From positions 5,385 to 69,384 of the forward strand of contig JAILPE010000112.1 in NCBI GenBank assembly GCA_024699645.1: DNA of 64,000 nt, in the 5' to 3' direction. The DNA is from Lachnospiraceae bacterium (GTDB taxonomy: Bacteria; Bacillota; Clostridia; Lachnospirales; Lachnospiraceae). Below, piece by piece: positions 30,554 to 40,692 of the stretch. A program made the position numbers and the translations under genes. The first letter of the stretch is position 1. Every line of letters begins with the position of its first letter. The notes beneath the pieces were generated by a model. It searched no databases. It was given only the letters and a program-made list of their open reading frames with translations, and had not been told where the DNA came from.

Positions 30554-30626
30554 GCACCTGTAGCGAAGAGGATAACGCGCAGTCTTCCGAAGTCTGAGAT
30601 CACAGGTTCGAATCCTGCCAGGTGCG
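30554..30626 (+). tRNA. tRNA-Arg (anticodon CCG), 73 nt, CCA not encoded
   Basis: Hand-folded cloverleaf. The acceptor stem is GCACCTG/CAGGTGC and the anticodon loop is TTCCGAA. U8, A14, G15-C48, U33, the T-loop TTCGAAT and C61 are all present. Non-Watson-Crick pairs are 13-22 A.A, 30-40 U.U and 49-65 A.C. Confidence 0.75.
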
Positions 30627-31960: not shown

Positions 31961-31984
31961 TGGTTTGGCGTGCAAGGAGGGAGA

Positions 31985-32872
31985 ATGGCGGATAATCAGT
32001 TGAGTCTTAGGACTTCGGACCTGTTTATTGTTCCGATATCTTGTATTGAGCTTGAAAGACGCGCGGGGAGCGGGGATCTCTTTGAAGAGGGAACTTCGAC
32101 AGACCCGGAAGAAAAACCGGTAACTTCGGGAGTGATGGCTCGGGTCGATCCTCTCGCGGGAGAAAGCTTCTTTTTCGGAGGAAGCGTTTCGGACAATTCG
32201 GACAGGACAGAACGACGGTATTTAAAGAGTGAACTGTGTGCCGATATTTTTCGTGCCTGCAGTGACGACGACGATCCCGACTTTGTCTGGTATACCGTTT
32301 GGAGGGTGAGCCTTCGTGCAAATCCCAAAGAACTCGTCGGACTTTTCAGGTTCCTCGGACCGCAAAAAAAAGGCAGGGTCGGGTTCGAGCTTATCATCTA
32401 TGAAGATTACAGACATTTGGGATATGGTCATCAGCTTATTGATAAGATGACTGTGTTCGCCTTTGATAAGAGTGATGTTTATTATCTGTATTCAAACATC
32501 CACGGAAATGAGGATCCTGTCGAATATGAAAGAGTTTTAAGGCGCAGCGGATACAAAACAGAAGAGGAAGTATTAAATCCTTTTGAGGCGGATAGAATTA
32601 TACCCGAAGACGAAGAACTCTTAAAAAAGCGTGCATTACCCGAATACTTACTTAAAGAGTCAGGTGTAACTTCTTATTCGGCGGCATATGTGATGATAGG
32701 TCTTTGCGCCGGTATGTTTATAAGCATCATAACAGGTCTCATGCTCGAGGGGCTTGCATGCGGTCTCGTTTTTTCGACTGTCTGGGGAGCAATCATGGAT
32801 CATTTTGAGCTCAAACACAGGAGAAGGATACTTGGAGGGGACGGGCCAAAGAAACAGGTTGAGGATGCCTGA
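31985..32872 (+). CDS. GNAT-like acetyltransferase domain protein with a C-terminal two-helix membrane anchor
   Basis: The IIYEDYRHLGYGHQLI motif is GNAT-like. The C-terminus AAYVMIGLCAGMFISIITGLMLEGLACGLVFSTVWGAIM is hydrophobic. RBS AGGAGGG. Confidence 0.5.
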   Translation: MADNQLSLRTSDLFIVPISCIELERRAGSGDLFEEGTSTDPEEKPVTSGVMARVDPLAGESFFFGGSVSDNSDRTERRYLKSELCADIFRACSDDDDPDFVWYTVWRVSLRANPKELVGLFRFLGPQKKGRVGFELIIYEDYRHLGYGHQLIDKMTVFAFDKSDVYYLYSNIHGNEDPVEYERVLRRSGYKTEEEVLNPFEADRIIPEDEELLKKRALPEYLLKESGVTSYSAAYVMIGLCAGMFISIITGLMLEGLACGLVFSTVWGAIMDHFELKHRRRILGGDGPKKQVEDA

Positions 32873-33406: not shown

Positions 33407-33464
33407 AATTATTCAATCCGTAAAAACAGCAGGAAAATCAATTGCTAAAAAAGGAAAACGATAC

Positions 33465-36239
33465 ATGCGGCGTTTAGTGATCGGGATTCTTGCACATGTA
33501 GATGCAGGTAAGACCACATTATCAGAGGCGATCCTTTATAAAACCGAAAGGATCAGAAAACTGGGAAGAGTCGATAAAAAAGACGCTTTCCTTGATAATT
33601 TTGCTCTCGAACGTGAACGCGGAATTACGATCTTTTCGAAGCAGGCGGTTTTTGAACGCGGGAATACCCTGTTTACCCTGATCGACACACCCGGGCATGT
33701 TGATTTCTCGACAGAGATGGAAAGAACTCTTTCTGTTCTCGATATAGCCGTTCTTGTGATAAGCGGCACCGACGGAATTCAGGCTCACACGAGGACCCTT
33801 TGGCGTCTTCTTGAGCATTATGATATTCCGACGTTTATATTTGTAAATAAAATGGACAGAGAAGGCTGTGACCGCAAGGCTCTTCAAAGAGAACTCGAGT
33901 CACAGCTTTCTGACGCCTGTGTGGATATGAGCTTTTCCGAAAATATGAACGAACAGATTGCCATGCTCGACGAGGGCGTAATGGAGAGGTATCTTGAAAG
34001 CGGAAAGATCACGGCGGAAGATATCAGGGAGCTTATCGGCGAAAGAATGCTGTTCCCATGTTTTTACGGATCTGCTCTCAAGCTTGAAGGAATTGACGGG
34101 TTGCTTGACGGACTTGCCGGGTATTCACCCGATCTTCCTCATGAAGAGAGTTTTAGAGCGCGAGTATATAAGATAGGCCGTGATCCTGAAGGAAACAGAC
34201 TGACGTATATGAAGCTGACAGGAGGAGAATTAAAGAACAGATCGGTTATCGAGTATATGGCTCTTCGGGACGAAAACATACTCCTGAGGCGCAGCGAAGA
34301 AGAAGTTGATGATTCATCGGCAATTTTGAACTATAAGGAAAAGGTCACGCAGATCCGTGTTTATGAAGGTGATAAATTCGAAACGACCGAGACGGCACAG
34401 CAGGGTATGGTCGTGGCTGTGCTCGGACTCACTGCCACTTATGCGGGGCAGGTGATCGGTGAGGAAGACGAAGAACCGCAAAAAAAGATAGCACCTGTAA
34501 TGACATACAGGGTGATCGCACGTGACAGAGGCGCTCTTACGGCACTGCTTCCAAAACTGAAGATACTTGAAGAAGAAGATCCTACACTCGGCGTTGTCTG
34601 GAATGATGAGCTCAGGGAGCTCCAGATAAGCGTTATGGGGGATATACAGCTTGAGATAATCAAACGTCAGCTTTTGGACAGATTCGGCGAAGACGTTGAT
34701 TTTGATAAGGGAAGCGTTCTTTACAAGGAAACTGTATCAGCTCCCGTACTCGGGGTAGGACATTTTGAACCGCTCAGACATTATGCCGAAGCACAGCTTC
34801 TTATCGAGCCATCGGAGAGAGGAATGGGTATTTCGGCCGAATCGAGAGTTTCGGTTAATGATCTTGAACTAAACTGGCAGAGACTTATCCTGACGCACAT
34901 CTATGAAAGAAGGCATAAGGGTGTCCTTACGGGTGCGGAACTGACAGATGTTAATGTAGCCGTTGTAGCGGGAAGAGCTCATATCAAGCACACCGAAGGA
35001 GGAGACTTCAGACAGGCAACATACCGCGCCGTCAGGCAGGGACTCATGCGTGCGAGAGAAGAAGGCAAATGCGTCCTTCTTGAGCCGTACTATGAGCTCA
35101 CGATAGAGCTGCCGCGTACCAATTGCGGACGTGCCATGACCGATATAGAAAGTCGTTTCGGCCGCGTTACTTCGCAGTACGAGATCGGATACGGGGATAT
35201 GGTCGGGATCACGGGAGTTGCGCCTGTATCGACGATGCAGGGATATTCAAGGGAAGTGTCTTCTTACACGAAAGGTCTCGGAAACGTTTATTGCTCGTTT
35301 TTCGGGTACCTACCCTGCCATAACGCGGATGAGGTGATAGCGTCAAGCGGTTATATGCCCGAAGCTGATCTTAGAAATCCGGCGTCGTCCGTATTTTGTG
35401 CTCACGGTTCCGGTTTCGTTGTTGAGTGGAATGATGTGGACAGCTACAAACACCTTGATTATGACATTCAAACCGGAAGCCTCAAAAGTGACGAACCGCT
35501 ACAAATATACCCTGTTTCACATAACAAAGAAGAAATGGTCATCGGCACGGACGAGATCGATGCGATCCTTGCAAAGACATCTCATGCCAACAAAAAGGAC
35601 AAGACATACAGAAATCCTTTCAGAAAGCACAAGGCCGGGAATGAAAAGCATGAAGACAGATCTTCACGGTATTATTCCGCGTCTGTGAATTTGGGGGATG
35701 ATGAGACCGGAAATGAAAACGTATCGTTTACAAAAGACAAATATTTAAAAAAGCTGATCACTGATACCCGTGACAGGTATCTCCTTGTCGACGGCTATAA
35801 TATCATATTCAAGTGGCCGGAGCTGTCAGATCTCGTAAAAGATAATGTTGACGCGGCCAGAGACCGGCTTAATGATATTTTGTGTGATTACCAGGCCCGG
35901 AAGGGGTGCAAGCTTATGGTCGTCTATGACGCCTATCGCGTCAAGGGACATCCTACAGAATATTTTGACTATCACAATATCATCGTTGTATTTACAAAAG
36001 AGGCCGAGACAGCGGATAAGTTTATAGAACGCTTTGCTCATGAGAACGGAAAGCAGGTCGATATAAGCGTTGCGACATCAGACGGACTTGAGCAGATTAT
36101 AATCAGGGGTGCCGGCTGTAAGCTTGTGACGGCAAACGACCTGCTCGCGGAGGTAAACGAACTTCGCTCAGAAACAAGAAGCAGGATCGAAGGCGGGTCC
36201 ATAAGCAAAGCTACTACAAGGCTCGGTGATCTGATGTGA
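33465..36239 (+). CDS. Tet(M)/EF-G-like translational GTPase fused to a C-terminal YacP/Rae1-type NYN ribonuclease domain (924 aa)
   Basis: G1 AHVDAGKT, G2 RGITI, G3 DTPGH, G4 NKMD, with an EF-G-like domain II-V layout collinear with Tet(M). Residues from about 768 to the end, LLVDGYNIIF...VVYDAY...VVFTKEAETADKFIE...VATSDGLEQ, align by eye with B. subtilis YacP/Rae1. It is a single uninterrupted ORF. Confidence 0.85.
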   Translation: MRRLVIGILAHVDAGKTTLSEAILYKTERIRKLGRVDKKDAFLDNFALERERGITIFSKQAVFERGNTLFTLIDTPGHVDFSTEMERTLSVLDIAVLVISGTDGIQAHTRTLWRLLEHYDIPTFIFVNKMDREGCDRKALQRELESQLSDACVDMSFSENMNEQIAMLDEGVMERYLESGKITAEDIRELIGERMLFPCFYGSALKLEGIDGLLDGLAGYSPDLPHEESFRARVYKIGRDPEGNRLTYMKLTGGELKNRSVIEYMALRDENILLRRSEEEVDDSSAILNYKEKVTQIRVYEGDKFETTETAQQGMVVAVLGLTATYAGQVIGEEDEEPQKKIAPVMTYRVIARDRGALTALLPKLKILEEEDPTLGVVWNDELRELQISVMGDIQLEIIKRQLLDRFGEDVDFDKGSVLYKETVSAPVLGVGHFEPLRHYAEAQLLIEPSERGMGISAESRVSVNDLELNWQRLILTHIYERRHKGVLTGAELTDVNVAVVAGRAHIKHTEGGDFRQATYRAVRQGLMRAREEGKCVLLEPYYELTIELPRTNCGRAMTDIESRFGRVTSQYEIGYGDMVGITGVAPVSTMQGYSREVSSYTKGLGNVYCSFFGYLPCHNADEVIASSGYMPEADLRNPASSVFCAHGSGFVVEWNDVDSYKHLDYDIQTGSLKSDEPLQIYPVSHNKEEMVIGTDEIDAILAKTSHANKKDKTYRNPFRKHKAGNEKHEDRSSRYYSASVNLGDDETGNENVSFTKDKYLKKLITDTRDRYLLVDGYNIIFKWPELSDLVKDNVDAARDRLNDILCDYQARKGCKLMVVYDAYRVKGHPTEYFDYHNIIVVFTKEAETADKFIERFAHENGKQVDISVATSDGLEQIIIRGAGCKLVTANDLLAEVNELRSETRSRIEGGSISKATTRLGDLM

Positions 36240-36308: not shown

Positions 36309-38090
36309 TCACGCGATATCGTCGAGCTGAGATGTGTAGAGTCTGTAGTAAGCGCCCTGCTTAGTCATAAGTTCGTCGTGATTGCCAGCTTCGACAATAC
36401 CTCCGTCATCGATATACATGATGAGGTCGCAACCGCGGATCGTCGAGAGACGGTGTGCGATGATGAAGGATGTACGACCTTTGAGCATAGTATCAAGCCC
36501 TTTTTGGAGGGCTTTTTCTGTTTGAACGTCTATGCTTGACGTTGCTTCGTCGAGTATAAGGATCGCGGGATCCGAAAGGAGCGTCCTTGCAAATGAAATG
36601 AGCTGCTTCTGGCCTTGGGAGAGGAGTGAGCCACGTTCTTTGACTTCCGTGTCATAGCCGTTCAGCATATGTCCGATAAATGTGTCGGCACATACCTTTT
36701 CCGATGCTGCTTTTATCTCATCGTCCGTTGCATCGAGCTTTCCGTAACGGATATTGTCTTTGATCGTACCGGAGAAGATAAAGCTGTCCTGAAGCATGAT
36801 ACCCATCTGTGAACGGAGCGATTCGAGAGTGACTTTGTTGATGTCATGGCCGTCGATGAGTACACGCCCGCTGTTTACATTATAAAATCGTGAGATGAGA
36901 TTTACGATCGTGCTCTTTCCGGCACCCGTAGGACCGACGAGGGCAACGCTCATACCGGGATCGATCTTAAACGAAACATGATGAAGTACTTCCTTGTCTT
37001 CTTCATATGAGAACGAGACATCGTCAAATTCAACGCTTCCCTTGATGGGAGGGAGCTCTGTCGTATCGGGAGCATTATCTACCGTGACTTTCTCACCGAG
37101 TGTCTCGAAAATTCTTTCAAGATAAGCCATATTGTTCATGAAGTTGTTGAAGATGTTTCCGAGGTTCATGATCGGCTGCCAGAAACGTGCTGCGTAGGAT
37201 GAGATCGCTATGATAACACCGACTGTCTTGGCACCGGAACCGAAAAGCACCATACCGAAAAGAAAGATGGCAGCGCGGATAAAGACGGAGATTCCGTCGA
37301 TGCCGGGCCAGATAAGGTTGTTGTATGTTACGGCACGCATCCATGTCTTTCTGCAGTCCTGAGAGAGATCCGCAAATATCTCGGCATTTTCCTGTTCGCG
37401 GGCAAAGATCTGCGTTATGCGGGCACCGACTATGTTCTCCTGGAGATAGGCGTTGAGGTTCGAATTTTTGTTTGAAACCATTTGCCATGCCTTGCGCTGC
37501 CTGTTTTTGATGAAGAAAAGGAACGCAGCAAGTACGGGAACACCGCACAGAACGACGATCGACATTTCGACGTCCTCGATGAGCATAAAGATTATGATGA
37601 ACACAAGGTTAATCATCTCGAGGATCGTATTAATAAGGCCGTTTGAGAGCATATCCGAAACCGAATTTACATAGTTTACGACTCGGATGAGGATCTTTCC
37701 GTGAGGGCGTGAATCATAGTAATCAAAGGAAAGCTTTTGCAGATGTGCGAAAAGGTCTTTACGGATATCAAAAATGATGCTCTGCGATACCTTTACCATG
37801 ATGCGCTGCCTGATCGTAACAAAAATGATACTCACAACGAAGGCAACGATCAGGAGGATAACGAGTGTGATCAGGTATTTTACATCGCCGTCGGGGATAG
37901 CGTGATCGAGCGCCTGCTGTGTTATCATGGGCGAGAAAAGAGCTGCGCCTGCGGCAATAGCGCTCATAAGCATCGCGAGAAGCATCTTGGAAAGGTATTT
38001 CTTTATATATTTTGAAGCGAGCAGAATATGCCTCATGTTAAATTCTTCATCGAGGCGCTCATCAACTCTGAATGTGTTCCTTTTTGCCAT
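36309..38090 (-). CDS. ABC exporter, fused permease/ATPase (heterodimer partner)
   Basis: Walker A GPTGAGKST, LSQGQKQ and ILILDEATS. The start MAKRNTF at 38090 is preferred. Confidence 0.9.
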   Translation of the reverse strand: MAKRNTFRVDERLDEEFNMRHILLASKYIKKYLSKMLLAMLMSAIAAGAALFSPMITQQALDHAIPDGDVKYLITLVILLIVAFVVSIIFVTIRQRIMVKVSQSIIFDIRKDLFAHLQKLSFDYYDSRPHGKILIRVVNYVNSVSDMLSNGLINTILEMINLVFIIIFMLIEDVEMSIVVLCGVPVLAAFLFFIKNRQRKAWQMVSNKNSNLNAYLQENIVGARITQIFAREQENAEIFADLSQDCRKTWMRAVTYNNLIWPGIDGISVFIRAAIFLFGMVLFGSGAKTVGVIIAISSYAARFWQPIMNLGNIFNNFMNNMAYLERIFETLGEKVTVDNAPDTTELPPIKGSVEFDDVSFSYEEDKEVLHHVSFKIDPGMSVALVGPTGAGKSTIVNLISRFYNVNSGRVLIDGHDINKVTLESLRSQMGIMLQDSFIFSGTIKDNIRYGKLDATDDEIKAASEKVCADTFIGHMLNGYDTEVKERGSLLSQGQKQLISFARTLLSDPAILILDEATSSIDVQTEKALQKGLDTMLKGRTSFIIAHRLSTIRGCDLIMYIDDGGIVEAGNHDELMTKQGAYYRLYTSQLDDIA

Positions 38091-38211
38091 TTCCTTAAAT
38101 CCTCCTGTCTGCACATTATGTATAGTTACACAGGGATGTGCAGATATATGTTTTTTGTCCTGTTTATACGGTTTAGTTCTAAAATAACGGGTACGAGACC
38201 GGGCCGGTAAT

Positions 38212-40014
38212 TCAGCCTGTTATGCTCCTGAGCTCCAGGCCTGTCTGGAGCGAAACAAGATTTGCATAGTAGCCGCCCTTGGCGCAAAGCTCCTTGTGCG
38301 TGCCTTCTTCGATTATGCGGCCGCCGCCCATAACGAATATCTTATCGCAGTATTTAGTTGTCGAGATCCTCTGCGCGATGATGATCTTTGTACAGTTAAA
38401 GTCAAGCTCACTGAGTGAGTCGCGTATGTGTTTTTCGGTCTCCATGTCAACTGCAGAGGTCGTATCGTCGAGAATAAGGATCGAAGGCTTGATTGCAAGA
38501 GCGCGGGCAAGCGAGATCCTCTGCTTTTGGCCACCCGAAAGACCGACGCCGCGTTCTCCGACGATCGTGTCGTAGCCTTCGGGCATTTTGTCGATGAATT
38601 CCTGAGCTGCCGAGTATTTTGCGTATTTAACAACCTCATCCTGGGAAAGTGAGCTGTCGCCGTATGCGATATTGCCCTCGATCGTATCGGAATAGAGGAG
38701 AACGTCTTGAGTCGCAAGACCGATATTGTGTCTGAGGTCCGTGAGTTCGTAGTCTTTAACGTCTATGCCGTCAATCTTTACGATTCCGTTCTCGGGATCA
38801 TAAAAACGCGGTATCATATGAATTAGAGAAGTCTTTCCGCATCCTGTTTCACCGATTATTGCGACGGTCTGCCCGGGCTCGATCTTAAGATTAATATCGC
38901 GGAGCACAGGAACGGAACCGCCTTCGTATCCGAACGAAACGTGATCGAATTCGATGAGACCTTTGAAGCGATCGGGATGCTTAACGGCATCAGGCTTTGA
39001 AACAATACCGGCCTGAGAATTGTAGATCTCCATAACCTTCTTTGAAGCAGCGGCGAAACGCTGGAATTCGTTCATGATGTTGCCGAGCTGTCTCATGGGG
39101 TTGGCAACAGCCCAGATGAGCATTGAGAAGGAAACATATTCGGGGATCCCTATCCTTCCGTTTATGATGAAAAGTCCGCCCGCAAGCAGAAGTATAACGG
39201 GAAGAAGGTTGGCAAATGTTTCTATCACAGGGAAATATTTGAGCCATGTGCGTTGTGTGTCCATATTTGCTTCGGCATAGCTCGTGTTCGAACGGTTGAA
39301 TTTCTCTTTTTCGTATTCTTCACGGGCGAATGCTTTAACAACACGGTTACCGGAAATGTTTTCCTGTGCGTCAGTATTAAGGCCCGAAAGCTTGTCACGA
39401 AGTATACGGTGCTTCTCGGCAGAAGCATGCTTGAACTTCAGGATAACAAGGAATAAAAGTGGTGTGATAGATAGTATACAAAGGGCGAGCAGCCAGTCCA
39501 TTATAAAGAAATATATCGCCGTCGCAACAAAGAGAGCGAAGCTGTCGACTACGGATTTGATGACCCAGGCAACGTTGTGCCGAACGGCATCAAGATCACC
39601 CGTGAGGCGTGTCATAAGGTCGCCGGTACGGTACTCGTTATAGAAGTTCATATCCTGATGCTCGATCTTGTCAAAGAGAAAATTTCTGAGCTTATAGAGA
39701 GTATGCTGTGAAACATATTCATAAGCCATGCACGTAAAATAGACGATCGTGATCCTGACGAGAGTCAGGCCGACCATAAGTACAAGATTAAGAATGAATT
39801 CGTCAAGTTTTTCGGACAGGGGAGTCCCTGTTCTCGCGGCTTCCTGAAAAAGGGAAACGATCTCTCCCGAAAAATACGGAACAATAAGCTGCATTATGTT
39901 ATATACAACAGTCATCAGTATTGCGATGACGTACATAACACGGTGTCCCTGCATATTGCCCCAAAGCCATCTCATCCATGACTTTTTGCCCGGAGTTTTT
40001 ACATTATCATCCAT
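38212..40014 (-). CDS. ABC exporter, fused permease/ATPase (heterodimer partner)
   Basis: Walker A GETGCGKTS, LSGGQKQR and ILILDDTTS. RBS AAAGGAG lies upstream. Confidence 0.9.
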   Translation of the reverse strand: MDDNVKTPGKKSWMRWLWGNMQGHRVMYVIAILMTVVYNIMQLIVPYFSGEIVSLFQEAARTGTPLSEKLDEFILNLVLMVGLTLVRITIVYFTCMAYEYVSQHTLYKLRNFLFDKIEHQDMNFYNEYRTGDLMTRLTGDLDAVRHNVAWVIKSVVDSFALFVATAIYFFIMDWLLALCILSITPLLFLVILKFKHASAEKHRILRDKLSGLNTDAQENISGNRVVKAFAREEYEKEKFNRSNTSYAEANMDTQRTWLKYFPVIETFANLLPVILLLAGGLFIINGRIGIPEYVSFSMLIWAVANPMRQLGNIMNEFQRFAAASKKVMEIYNSQAGIVSKPDAVKHPDRFKGLIEFDHVSFGYEGGSVPVLRDINLKIEPGQTVAIIGETGCGKTSLIHMIPRFYDPENGIVKIDGIDVKDYELTDLRHNIGLATQDVLLYSDTIEGNIAYGDSSLSQDEVVKYAKYSAAQEFIDKMPEGYDTIVGERGVGLSGGQKQRISLARALAIKPSILILDDTTSAVDMETEKHIRDSLSELDFNCTKIIIAQRISTTKYCDKIFVMGGGRIIEEGTHKELCAKGGYYANLVSLQTGLELRSITG

Positions 40015-40125: not shown

Positions 40126-40317
40126 GATATTTTACTATAAGTATACTAATTCTGCGAGTGTTCGCAGACAATCCATTTTTTGCGAAAAACCTCTCCATCT
40201 TTTGTCCAAAATATTAGATTGCTTTACTCGTGAGTTACGTGATAAAATGATAACAGTTCCCGCCGCGAGGACAGAAAGGCGGGATGTGGTCAAGAAACTA
40301 TATAAGGAGGTTTTACA

Positions 40318-40692
40318 ATGGAACAGAAGTTTTACAGATGCGAACATTGCGGAAACATCATCGCTATGGTTAAGAATTCGGGGGTACCCGTTGTGTGTTG
40401 CGGCGAAAAAATGAAGGAGATCGTTCCCGGCACGGTTGACGCTTCTCTTGAAAAGCATGTACCCAAGTATGAGATCAAAGACAATATCGTTTATGTTACG
40501 GTTGGTGCGGTAGAGCATCCCATGGGCGAAGATCATCTGATCGAGTGGATATCGATCCAGACAAGCGCAGGAAATCAGCGCAAGGTATTAAAGGCAGGCG
40601 GCGCTCCCAAGGCTTGCTTCGCTATCTGCGAGGGTGAGAAGGTTGAGGCGGTTTACGCGTACTGCAATCTTCACGGACTTTGGAAGGCATGA
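40318..40692 (+). CDS. dfx: Desulfoferrodoxin (2Fe superoxide reductase)
   Basis: N-terminal desulforedoxin Cys4 (CEHCGN...CCGE). C-terminal SOR site (EKHVP, EHPM, CNLHGLW). Confidence 0.9.
   Translation: MEQKFYRCEHCGNIIAMVKNSGVPVVCCGEKMKEIVPGTVDASLEKHVPKYEIKDNIVYVTVGAVEHPMGEDHLIEWISIQTSAGNQRKVLKAGGAPKACFAICEGEKVEAVYAYCNLHGLWKA

Follow-up and report, generated by a model that had tools for sequence, protein, structure and literature searches.

In a 64,000-nucleotide stretch of contig JAILPE010000112.1 (positions 5,385 to 69,384; hereafter the window), part of a metagenome-assembled genome (MAG) of a gut Lachnospiraceae bacterium, a single gene encodes a protein of 924 residues in which a complete translational GTPase (trGTPase) is joined by a long tether to a predicted endoribonuclease domain of the Rae1/YacP type. 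The protein is a further member of a fusion family that has been published but not characterised: Tet-NYN_YacP fusions in Clostridia were reported by Atkinson in 2015 (BMC Genomics, PMC4342817; sequences listed in Additional file 8) and by Matelska et al. in 2017 (NAR, PMC5499597). We read it as a chromosomal factor of the housekeeping type, a tethered Rae1 that would cut mRNA on stalled ribosomes under the control of GTP, and we assign this reading a probability of roughly 45%.

A preliminary description of the gene, made from the letters of the window, gave one uninterrupted open reading frame (ORF) of 924 residues at 33465–36239, and both the frame and the coordinates hold. The parts of the gene, all on the + strand, are as follows.

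33465..36239, + strand: whole gene, GTPase-NYN fusion of 924 residues (ORF listing; ATG start, stop codon included, frame uninterrupted)
33452..33455, + strand: Shine-Dalgarno-like AGGA, 9 nt 5' of the ATG (read from the sequence)
33474..34130, + strand: G domain, residues 4–222, with G1 AHVDAGKT, G2 RGITI, G3 DTPGH (His78) and G4 NKMD (Pfam GTP_EFTU, E = 8e-52)
34152..34454, + strand: domain II, residues 230–330, with a variable insertion at about residues 261–290 (weak Pfam EF-G_D2 match)
34494..34703, + strand: domain III, residues 344–413 (Pfam EFG_III, E = 2e-9)
34713..35054, + strand: domain IV, residues 417–530 (Pfam EFG_IV, E = 9e-14)
34971..35012, + strand: domain IV tip motif GRAHIKHTEGGDFR, residues 503–516, at the position of Tet loop III (GLYYSPVSTPADFR) (alignment with Tet(M)/Tet(O))
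35073..35324, + strand: domain V, residues 537–620 (Pfam EFG_C, E = 4e-17)
35304..35459, + strand: C-terminal module of the GTPase half, residues ~614–665, GYxPCHN...SVFCAHGxG...W...H..Y, with C618, H619, C645 and H647 conserved (alignment)
35460..35774, + strand: charged, disordered tether, residues ~666–770 (length and composition across homologues; AlphaFold2 model)
35541..35627, + strand: conserved tether island GTDEIDAILAKTSHANKKDKTYRNPFRK, residues ~693–721, with a predicted helix at 695–709 (AlphaFold2), found only in fusions
35775..36194, + strand: NYN endoribonuclease domain of the Rae1/YacP type, residues 771–910 (Pfam NYN_YacP, PF05991, residues 773–910, E = 4e-46)

A protein 100% identical to that of the window is present in NCBI and also comes from a Lachnospiraceae MAG. 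A scan for promoters and terminators around the gene gave no signal above the shuffled background.

The N-terminal 665 residues constitute a complete trGTPase of the EF-G/Tet fold. Statements on invariance and conservation here and below refer to 53 fusion homologues with 49–83% identity. The motifs G1 to G4, which had been picked out in the preliminary description, are present and invariant, including the catalytic His78, and the GTPase half is therefore predicted to be active. Residues 3–618 are collinear in one stretch with residues 3–613 of Tet(O), in agreement with the earlier comparison of the EF-G-like domains with Tet(M); the alignment with EF-G splits into two stretches because the G' region of the fusion is shorter. 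Within domain II, residues 270–285 show low conservation and a low predicted local distance difference test (pLDDT) score. In the AlphaFold2 (AF2)/ColabFold model each domain is confident, with a mean pLDDT of 76, and a Foldseek comparison of the model with the PDB returned EF-G structures as the top matches (E~1e-49).

The C-terminal 140 residues are predicted to be a Rae1-type NYN nuclease in which the experimentally validated catalytic aspartates of Rae1 are intact. The NYN_YacP match scores 157.4 bits against a cut-off of 24.6, and this part aligns with residues 4–139 of the crystallised Bacillus subtilis YacP/Rae1 (5MQ8/5MQ9) with E = 1.5e-24 and ~46% identity, so that the Rae1/YacP module seen by eye in the preliminary description is borne out, as is its overall composition of GTPase and nuclease; Pfam profiles matched all of the families that it had expected (GTP_EFTU, EFG, and NYN_YacP). 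Its four acidic positions, D776 (DGYN), D822 (YDA), D851 (ETAD), and D873 (TSD), are all present, invariant, and aligned with D7, D53, D81, and D104 of Rae1, respectively. The D7N D81N double mutant of B. subtilis Rae1 shows no activity in vivo (PMC10351889).

The tether between the two enzymes varies from 80 to 161 residues across homologues and is never shorter than 80. A linker of about 100 residues had been recognised earlier, and the AF2 model bears it out, with pLDDT below 50 at residues 678–694 and 706–766. The earlier layout of GTPase, linker, and NYN domain is correct as far as it goes, but it lacked two elements: the folded module of ~50 residues (614–665) between domain V and the linker, and the one conserved helix island (residues ~693–721) that the linker holds. 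The island follows the pattern GTDEIDxIL...ANxK...NPFRK, in which E697 and I701 are invariant and D699 and N709 are at least 90% conserved.

With the NYN module as the only query, an exhaustive search recovered 2504 representatives at E<=1e-3, and candidates for unfused relatives were drawn from the nearest 150 of these and from the 120 top matches to one further protein. Among these no genuine free-standing YacP close to the fused NYN module was verified, and the fused modules therefore appear to form a clade of their own, ~46% identical to B. subtilis Rae1. Seven loci with an apparently unfused NYN domain were rejected, all being damaged fusions: three ORFs run open to a contig edge, and the others comprise a scaffold gap of 100 N, an assembly shattered by frameshifts, a gene disrupted by an insertion sequence (IS), and a scaffold with a duplicated junction. 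In the IS-disrupted locus (1–1666) the gene breaks off within the linker, and a transposase-like gene on the other strand lies immediately upstream; what survives is a linker-NYN ORF of 242 residues, represented by 147 member sequences. NYN domains fused to resolvase, RNase PH, 2-oxoacid dehydrogenase E2, Band7, or radical SAM domains were also set aside. Those that were checked are clusters of one member on one contig, and such fusions are probably artefacts of gene calling or assembly.

The fusion architecture is carried by all of the 120 best database hits, the most distant of which are 49% identical. When the fusion-specific C-terminal 330 residues were used to scan GTDB, at one genome per species, at least 597 stretches were confirmed; an intact single GTPase-NYN frame is present in 75 of the 80 best species-representative loci, and the other five are cut at contig ends or interrupted. 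Most carriers are Lachnospiraceae, among them the cultured Enterocloster aldenensis, Anaerostipes butyraticus, Roseburia, Butyrivibrio, Blautia, and Parablautia as well as [Clostridium] polysaccharolyticum, Acetivibrio ethanolgignens, and Agathobacter rectalis. Outside this family the fusion occurs in Monoglobus pectinilyticus and Ruminococcus albus 7. Across hundreds of species, purifying selection maintains the fusion. Lachnospiraceae are among the most abundant bacteria of the human gut, and the family is probably a major, unstudied branch of bacterial translation quality control.

The preliminary description knew of no account of this architecture. In fact it has been published twice, in the two papers cited above, but our literature searches found no functional study of the fusion. 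Atkinson (2015) and Matelska et al. (2017) describe the same family and architecture as those of the window protein, and the entry for Eubacterium rectale ATCC 33656 in the Atkinson list matches the A. rectalis protein, whose full-length identity to the window protein is ~49%. They record the architecture only, class the GTPase as 'Tet', and contain no experiment. In their available parts, neither paper describes the tip of domain IV, the Cys/His module, the helix in the linker, or the sister family of unfused proteins presented below; relative to those parts, the non-Tet status, the tip motif, the Cys/His module, the unfused sisters, the invariant Rae1 residues, and the lack of an operon, phage, or defence link are new. 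Nor is the fusion mentioned in the recent Rae1 papers that were read, and term searches of a 2026 preprint and a 2025 review did not turn it up.

The GTPase half belongs to a distinct trGTPase subfamily, set apart from Tet and EF-G, of which one branch gained a nuclease. This assignment is based on an invariant domain IV tip and a Cys/His module of its own, both of which are common to unfused paralogues. Residues 501–520 are the most conserved 20-residue block of the entire protein (0.94), and K508–R516 of the tip are invariant. The Cys/His module is folded in the AF2 model (pLDDT ~84), absent from Tet(M) and Tet(O), and conserved in the fused and unfused families, including the unfused Ligilactobacillus (L.) salivarius paralogue; its conserved C618, H619, C645, and H647 make a link to zinc or another metal possible. 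The nearest non-fused relatives are chromosomal proteins of 640–665 residues, widespread in Lactobacillaceae and 45–47% identical. Those of L. salivarius (WP_283475094), Companilactobacillus, and Levilactobacillus share with the fusions the tip skeleton G[RK]A...H[TS]xGGDFR and the module PCHN...SVFCAHGAG, but they end right after the module, at the point where the tether of the fusion starts, and have neither tether nor NYN domain. Their annotation is inconsistent. The analysis thus defines a paralogue group, fused and unfused, that is distinct from both Tet and EF-G.

Judged by profile score, identity, and tip motif, the GTPase half is not a true Tet protein, as the preliminary description had already supposed. 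The best NCBIfam model for the fusion is tet_protect (NF012153), which it matches with 395 bits against a cut-off of 775; the other Tet models give 246 against 1100 (NF033148) and 200 against 1420 (NF012155). The EF-G equivalog models also stay below their cut-offs (TIGR00484, 261 against 659; NF009381, 298 against 583). By tblastn the GTPase half is ~30% identical to Tet(M), Tet(O), and Tet(W), 33% to TetB(P), and 27% to EF-G. Tet(M) and Tet(O) share with the fusion the five-domain EF-G-like layout, collinear over ~615 residues, and the reduced G' region. They differ from it at loop III, where they have YSPVS and the fusion has HxKHTEGGDFR (AHIKHTEGG in the window protein); at the C-terminus, where a short helix stands in place of the ~50-residue Cys/His module; and in genetic setting, their genes being mobile and the fusion gene chromosomal. 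Loop III of the Tet proteins, Y-Y-S-P-V-S, contacts C1054 and dislodges tetracycline. SPVS was found in the Tet(M) and Tet(O) controls but in none of 120 fused and 116 unfused members (0/236). The tip also differs from that of EF-G, in which ...GSYHDVDS... is aligned with AGRAHIKHTEGG of the fusion. NCBI nevertheless names the homologues 'TetM/TetW/TetO/TetS family tetracycline resistance ribosomal protection protein'. Since these proteins score below the NCBIfam Tet cut-offs and lack YSPVS, the genes are probably mislabelled as tetracycline-resistance determinants, and resistance is likely over-annotated in gut commensals; such widespread naming can inflate resistome estimates.

Free Rae1 acts on stalled or collided ribosomes, and its cut is now placed ~12 nt 5' of the A site. 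An earlier model, in which it cuts in the A site, has been revised by its proposers (PMC12407103), and this premise of the preliminary description falls with it. In B. subtilis Rae1 generates tmRNA substrates from collided ribosomes; the same source treats its recognition of stalled or collided ribosomes as an open question, no ribosome-bound structure being available because the binding is transient (PMC13622287). In the mechanism that we favour, the GTP form of the fusion would dock at the factor-binding site of a stalled ribosome whose A site is vacant or abnormal, and would insert domain IV there. Docking would keep the leashed nuclease at a high local concentration, and the cut in the mRNA would fall not in the A site but at the border of the stalled ribosome or in the gap between collided ones, like that of free Rae1 at about −12. 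GTP hydrolysis would release the factor, and the truncated mRNA would be passed to tmRNA rescue and decay. In ribosome structures with EF-G and Tet(M), domain IV fills the 30S A site, and the tethered NYN domain could therefore not sit there simultaneously. Because domain IV occupies the A site and the tether never falls below 80 residues, cleavage inside the A site is unlikely; a tether of at least 80 residues argues for action at a distance. As a random coil, 80 residues have an average span of ~80 Å (a rough estimate) and can extend much further. The GTPase-delivered A-site nuclease of the preliminary description is thus retained in part: the best reading would still be an mRNA nuclease that a GTPase brings to the ribosome in rescue or surveillance, and the A-site cleavage is dropped.

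Several points weigh against this reading. The substrate (mRNA or rRNA), the ribosome state, the cut position, and the GTP dependence are all inferred. The AF2 model has a predicted template modelling (pTM) score of 0.51 and gives no confident inter-domain geometry, so that the placement of the NYN domain cannot be read from it. The unfused Lactobacillaceae GTPases have no known function that could hint at what the GTPase half senses. As to a free rae1 beside the fusion, neither a second NYN_YacP domain nor another trGTPase was found within the 64-kb window scanned. Finally, the trGTPases of B. subtilis 168 are EF-Tu, EF-G, IF2, LepA, and TypA, with no Tet-class paralogue; Rae1 works there without a Tet-class GTPase, and delivery by a GTPase is therefore not intrinsic to Rae1 function. 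The GTPase is an added targeting device, not a universal requirement of Rae1. B. subtilis Rae1 is a free protein of ~170 residues with no dedicated GTPase, encoded in the gltX-cysES-mrnC-rlmB-yacP operon (PMC5499597), whereas the NYN domain of the fusion is the C-terminus of a 924-residue GTPase protein with a fusion-specific linker helix, and its gene has yqeY and ABC exporter genes as neighbours.

SmrB of Escherichia coli and the eukaryotic Cue2/NONU-1 with Dom34-Hbs1 may serve as analogues, in that mRNA cleavage dependent on the state of the ribosome feeds rescue. Their nucleases have the SMR fold, which is unrelated to NYN, and in these systems, unlike in the fusion, one protein is the sensor or GTPase and another the nuclease. 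A bolder form of our reading, which we hold only tentatively and consider doubtful as a whole, is that the fusion acts as a GTP-gated nuclease of no-go decay or ribosome collisions, that the new trGTPase subfamily senses a particular stalled state through its tip and Cys/His module and in Lachnospirales brings along a leashed Rae1 of its own, and that the unfused Lactobacillaceae paralogues recruit free Rae1 in trans, the last point following Rosetta-stone logic. If true, the protein would be the first bacterial mRNA endonuclease delivered by a trGTPase and would provide a handle on the engagement of Rae1 with the ribosome. The fusion ties Rae1 covalently to a factor-site GTPase and so bears directly on that open question. 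With a GTP analogue, or by mutation of His78, it could be locked on the ribosome, and it is therefore attractive as a reagent for trapping a nuclease of the Rae1 type there.

Among the open alternatives we place an rRNA substrate first, ahead of genuine tetracycline protection and a defence toxin, although we regard it as unlikely: the NYN domain would cut rRNA, with the GTPase proof-reading new or damaged ribosomes and 16S or 23S rRNA being trimmed or cleaved for maturation or decommissioning. The eukaryotic PIN nuclease Nob1, which works with the GTPase eIF5B, provides an analogue. On the strength of an operon shared with mrnC and rlmB, the original prediction for YacP was a role in the maturation of rRNA and tRNA (PMC4342817, PMC5499597), Atkinson (2015) proposed testing the rRNA RNase ability of the fusions (PMC4342817), the Rae1 cut at about −12 would lie near the mRNA exit and the 3' end of 16S rRNA, and one locus has the fusion gene between rsmH and gltX. 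However, the NYN domain is ~46% identical to B. subtilis Rae1 along the whole module, the demonstrated substrates of Rae1 are mRNAs, and no conserved linkage to rRNA-processing genes was seen. The version of the preliminary description, in which the GTPase delivers the NYN domain into the A site for a RelE-like cut of the A-site codon, seems to us quite improbable. It could draw on the original Rae1 model, in which docking of the crystal structure had led to the proposal of A-site cleavage (recounted in PMC12407103), and on the established ability of the EF-G/Tet fold to reach the A site with domain IV. But that model has been withdrawn by its authors, domain IV of the fusion would, to judge from the EF-G and Tet(M) structures, leave no room in the 30S A site for an NYN domain of ~17 kDa, and a conserved tether of at least 80 residues would be superfluous for action beside domain IV.

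Other explanations concern not the place of the cut but the role of the protein. A toxin or defence effector, triggered by stress or phage and stopping translation by cutting RNA on ribosomes, is suggested by an Eisenbergiella gene that adjoins Wadjet (JetABC) and a TIR/ThsA-like island, by a Rae1 preprint that speculates about defence against phage mRNA (PMC13622287), and by two GenBank records named 'Bacteriophage sp.' that carry the fusion gene. Yet PADLOC returned 0 families at E<=0.01, the defence neighbourhood does not recur among the other homologues, the 'phage' record MT835514 is a fragment of a bacterial chromosome, no antitoxin or immunity gene lies adjacent, and the family is core-like rather than patchy, which makes this role very improbable in our view. 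We give about as little weight to a genuine tetracycline ribosomal-protection protein with an added RNase, a novel resistance mechanism that was suggested by Atkinson (2015) and is implied by the NCBI name. The hidden Markov models of that study put the fusion in the Tet class; tet_protect is the best NCBIfam model, the protein is collinear with Tet(O), and 'DFR' after the tip loop is common to it and the Tet proteins. Against this stand the scores far under all Tet cut-offs, an identity of ~30% to Tet(M), Tet(O), and Tet(W) that is near the 27% with EF-G, and the lack of the tetracycline-displacing YSPVS loop throughout the family. There is also no leader peptide, transposon, or plasmid context, and the spread over hundreds of Lachnospiraceae species looks vertical and core-like, unlike that of the patchy, mobile tet genes. 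Virtually no credence remains for an artefact, that is, two neighbouring genes joined by a sequencing or assembly error. The window does come from a MAG, but the same architecture is found in all 120 best hits and in the isolates A. rectalis, Enterocloster aldenensis, Anaerostipes butyraticus, B. proteoclasticus, and R. albus, and the 75 intact loci among 80 species representatives speak for the single frame of the preliminary description and against a split into two genes.

In the window, a GH43 gene, a MatE transporter gene, tRNA-Arg(CCG), a metallophosphoesterase gene, an ORF of no assigned family, and yqeY precede the fusion gene, and two convergent ABC exporter genes and a class V aminotransferase gene follow it. 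Features of this region are listed below.

30554–30626, + strand: tRNA-Arg(CCG), the only RNA gene detected in the 64-kb window (ARAGORN and Rfam)
31970–32872, + strand: ORF of 300 residues with no Pfam match at E<=1e-3, upstream of the fusion gene with yqeY between
36309–38114, − strand: half-size ABC exporter gene (ABC_membrane and ABC_tran), BmrCD-like, converging on the fusion gene
38212–40014, − strand: half-size ABC exporter gene (ABC_membrane and ABC_tran), BmrCD-like, converging on the fusion gene
40135–40536, − strand: ORF of 133 residues with no Pfam match at E<=1e-3 (Pfam scan)

Each homologue examined has the fusion gene in a different context. When the flanking ORFs of 81 loci were clustered, no conserved neighbour emerged, the recurrent clusters being shadow ORFs inside the gene itself, and no tet leader, transposon, phage, or defence signature was found in the context of the fusion gene. 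The gene thus appears core-like, chromosomal, and without an operon partner, consistent with an autonomous translation factor. The validated target of B. subtilis Rae1 is the bmrBCD mRNA, and BmrCD-like exporters adjoin the fusion gene in the window. Their proximity is probably a coincidence, because ABC exporters flank just 8 of the 81 homologous loci.

Some individual loci deserve mention. On the Eisenbergiella contig (8001–16182) the stop codon of the fusion gene overlaps the start of jetA by 4 nt, jetB and jetC follow, and TIR-pentapeptide and ThsA-Macro genes lie upstream; such a neighbourhood was not seen in the other homologues. The record MT835514.1 (1–43777; 'UNVERIFIED: Bacteriophage sp.') encodes AddAB, CspB, FeoB, RsmH, GltX, GlpK, and PurL, and its fusion gene is the one between rsmH and gltX; in B. 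subtilis gltX heads the operon that ends in yacP. The second 'Bacteriophage sp.' record with the fusion is MT835563.1. A phage link of the fusion was rejected, the examined record MT835514 being bacterial. In L. salivarius (NZ_CP114545, 2735–6920 of the locus) the unfused paralogue adjoins rpsN (S14), an ArsR/SmtB metalloregulator gene, and a gene for a 'metal homeostasis' peptide.

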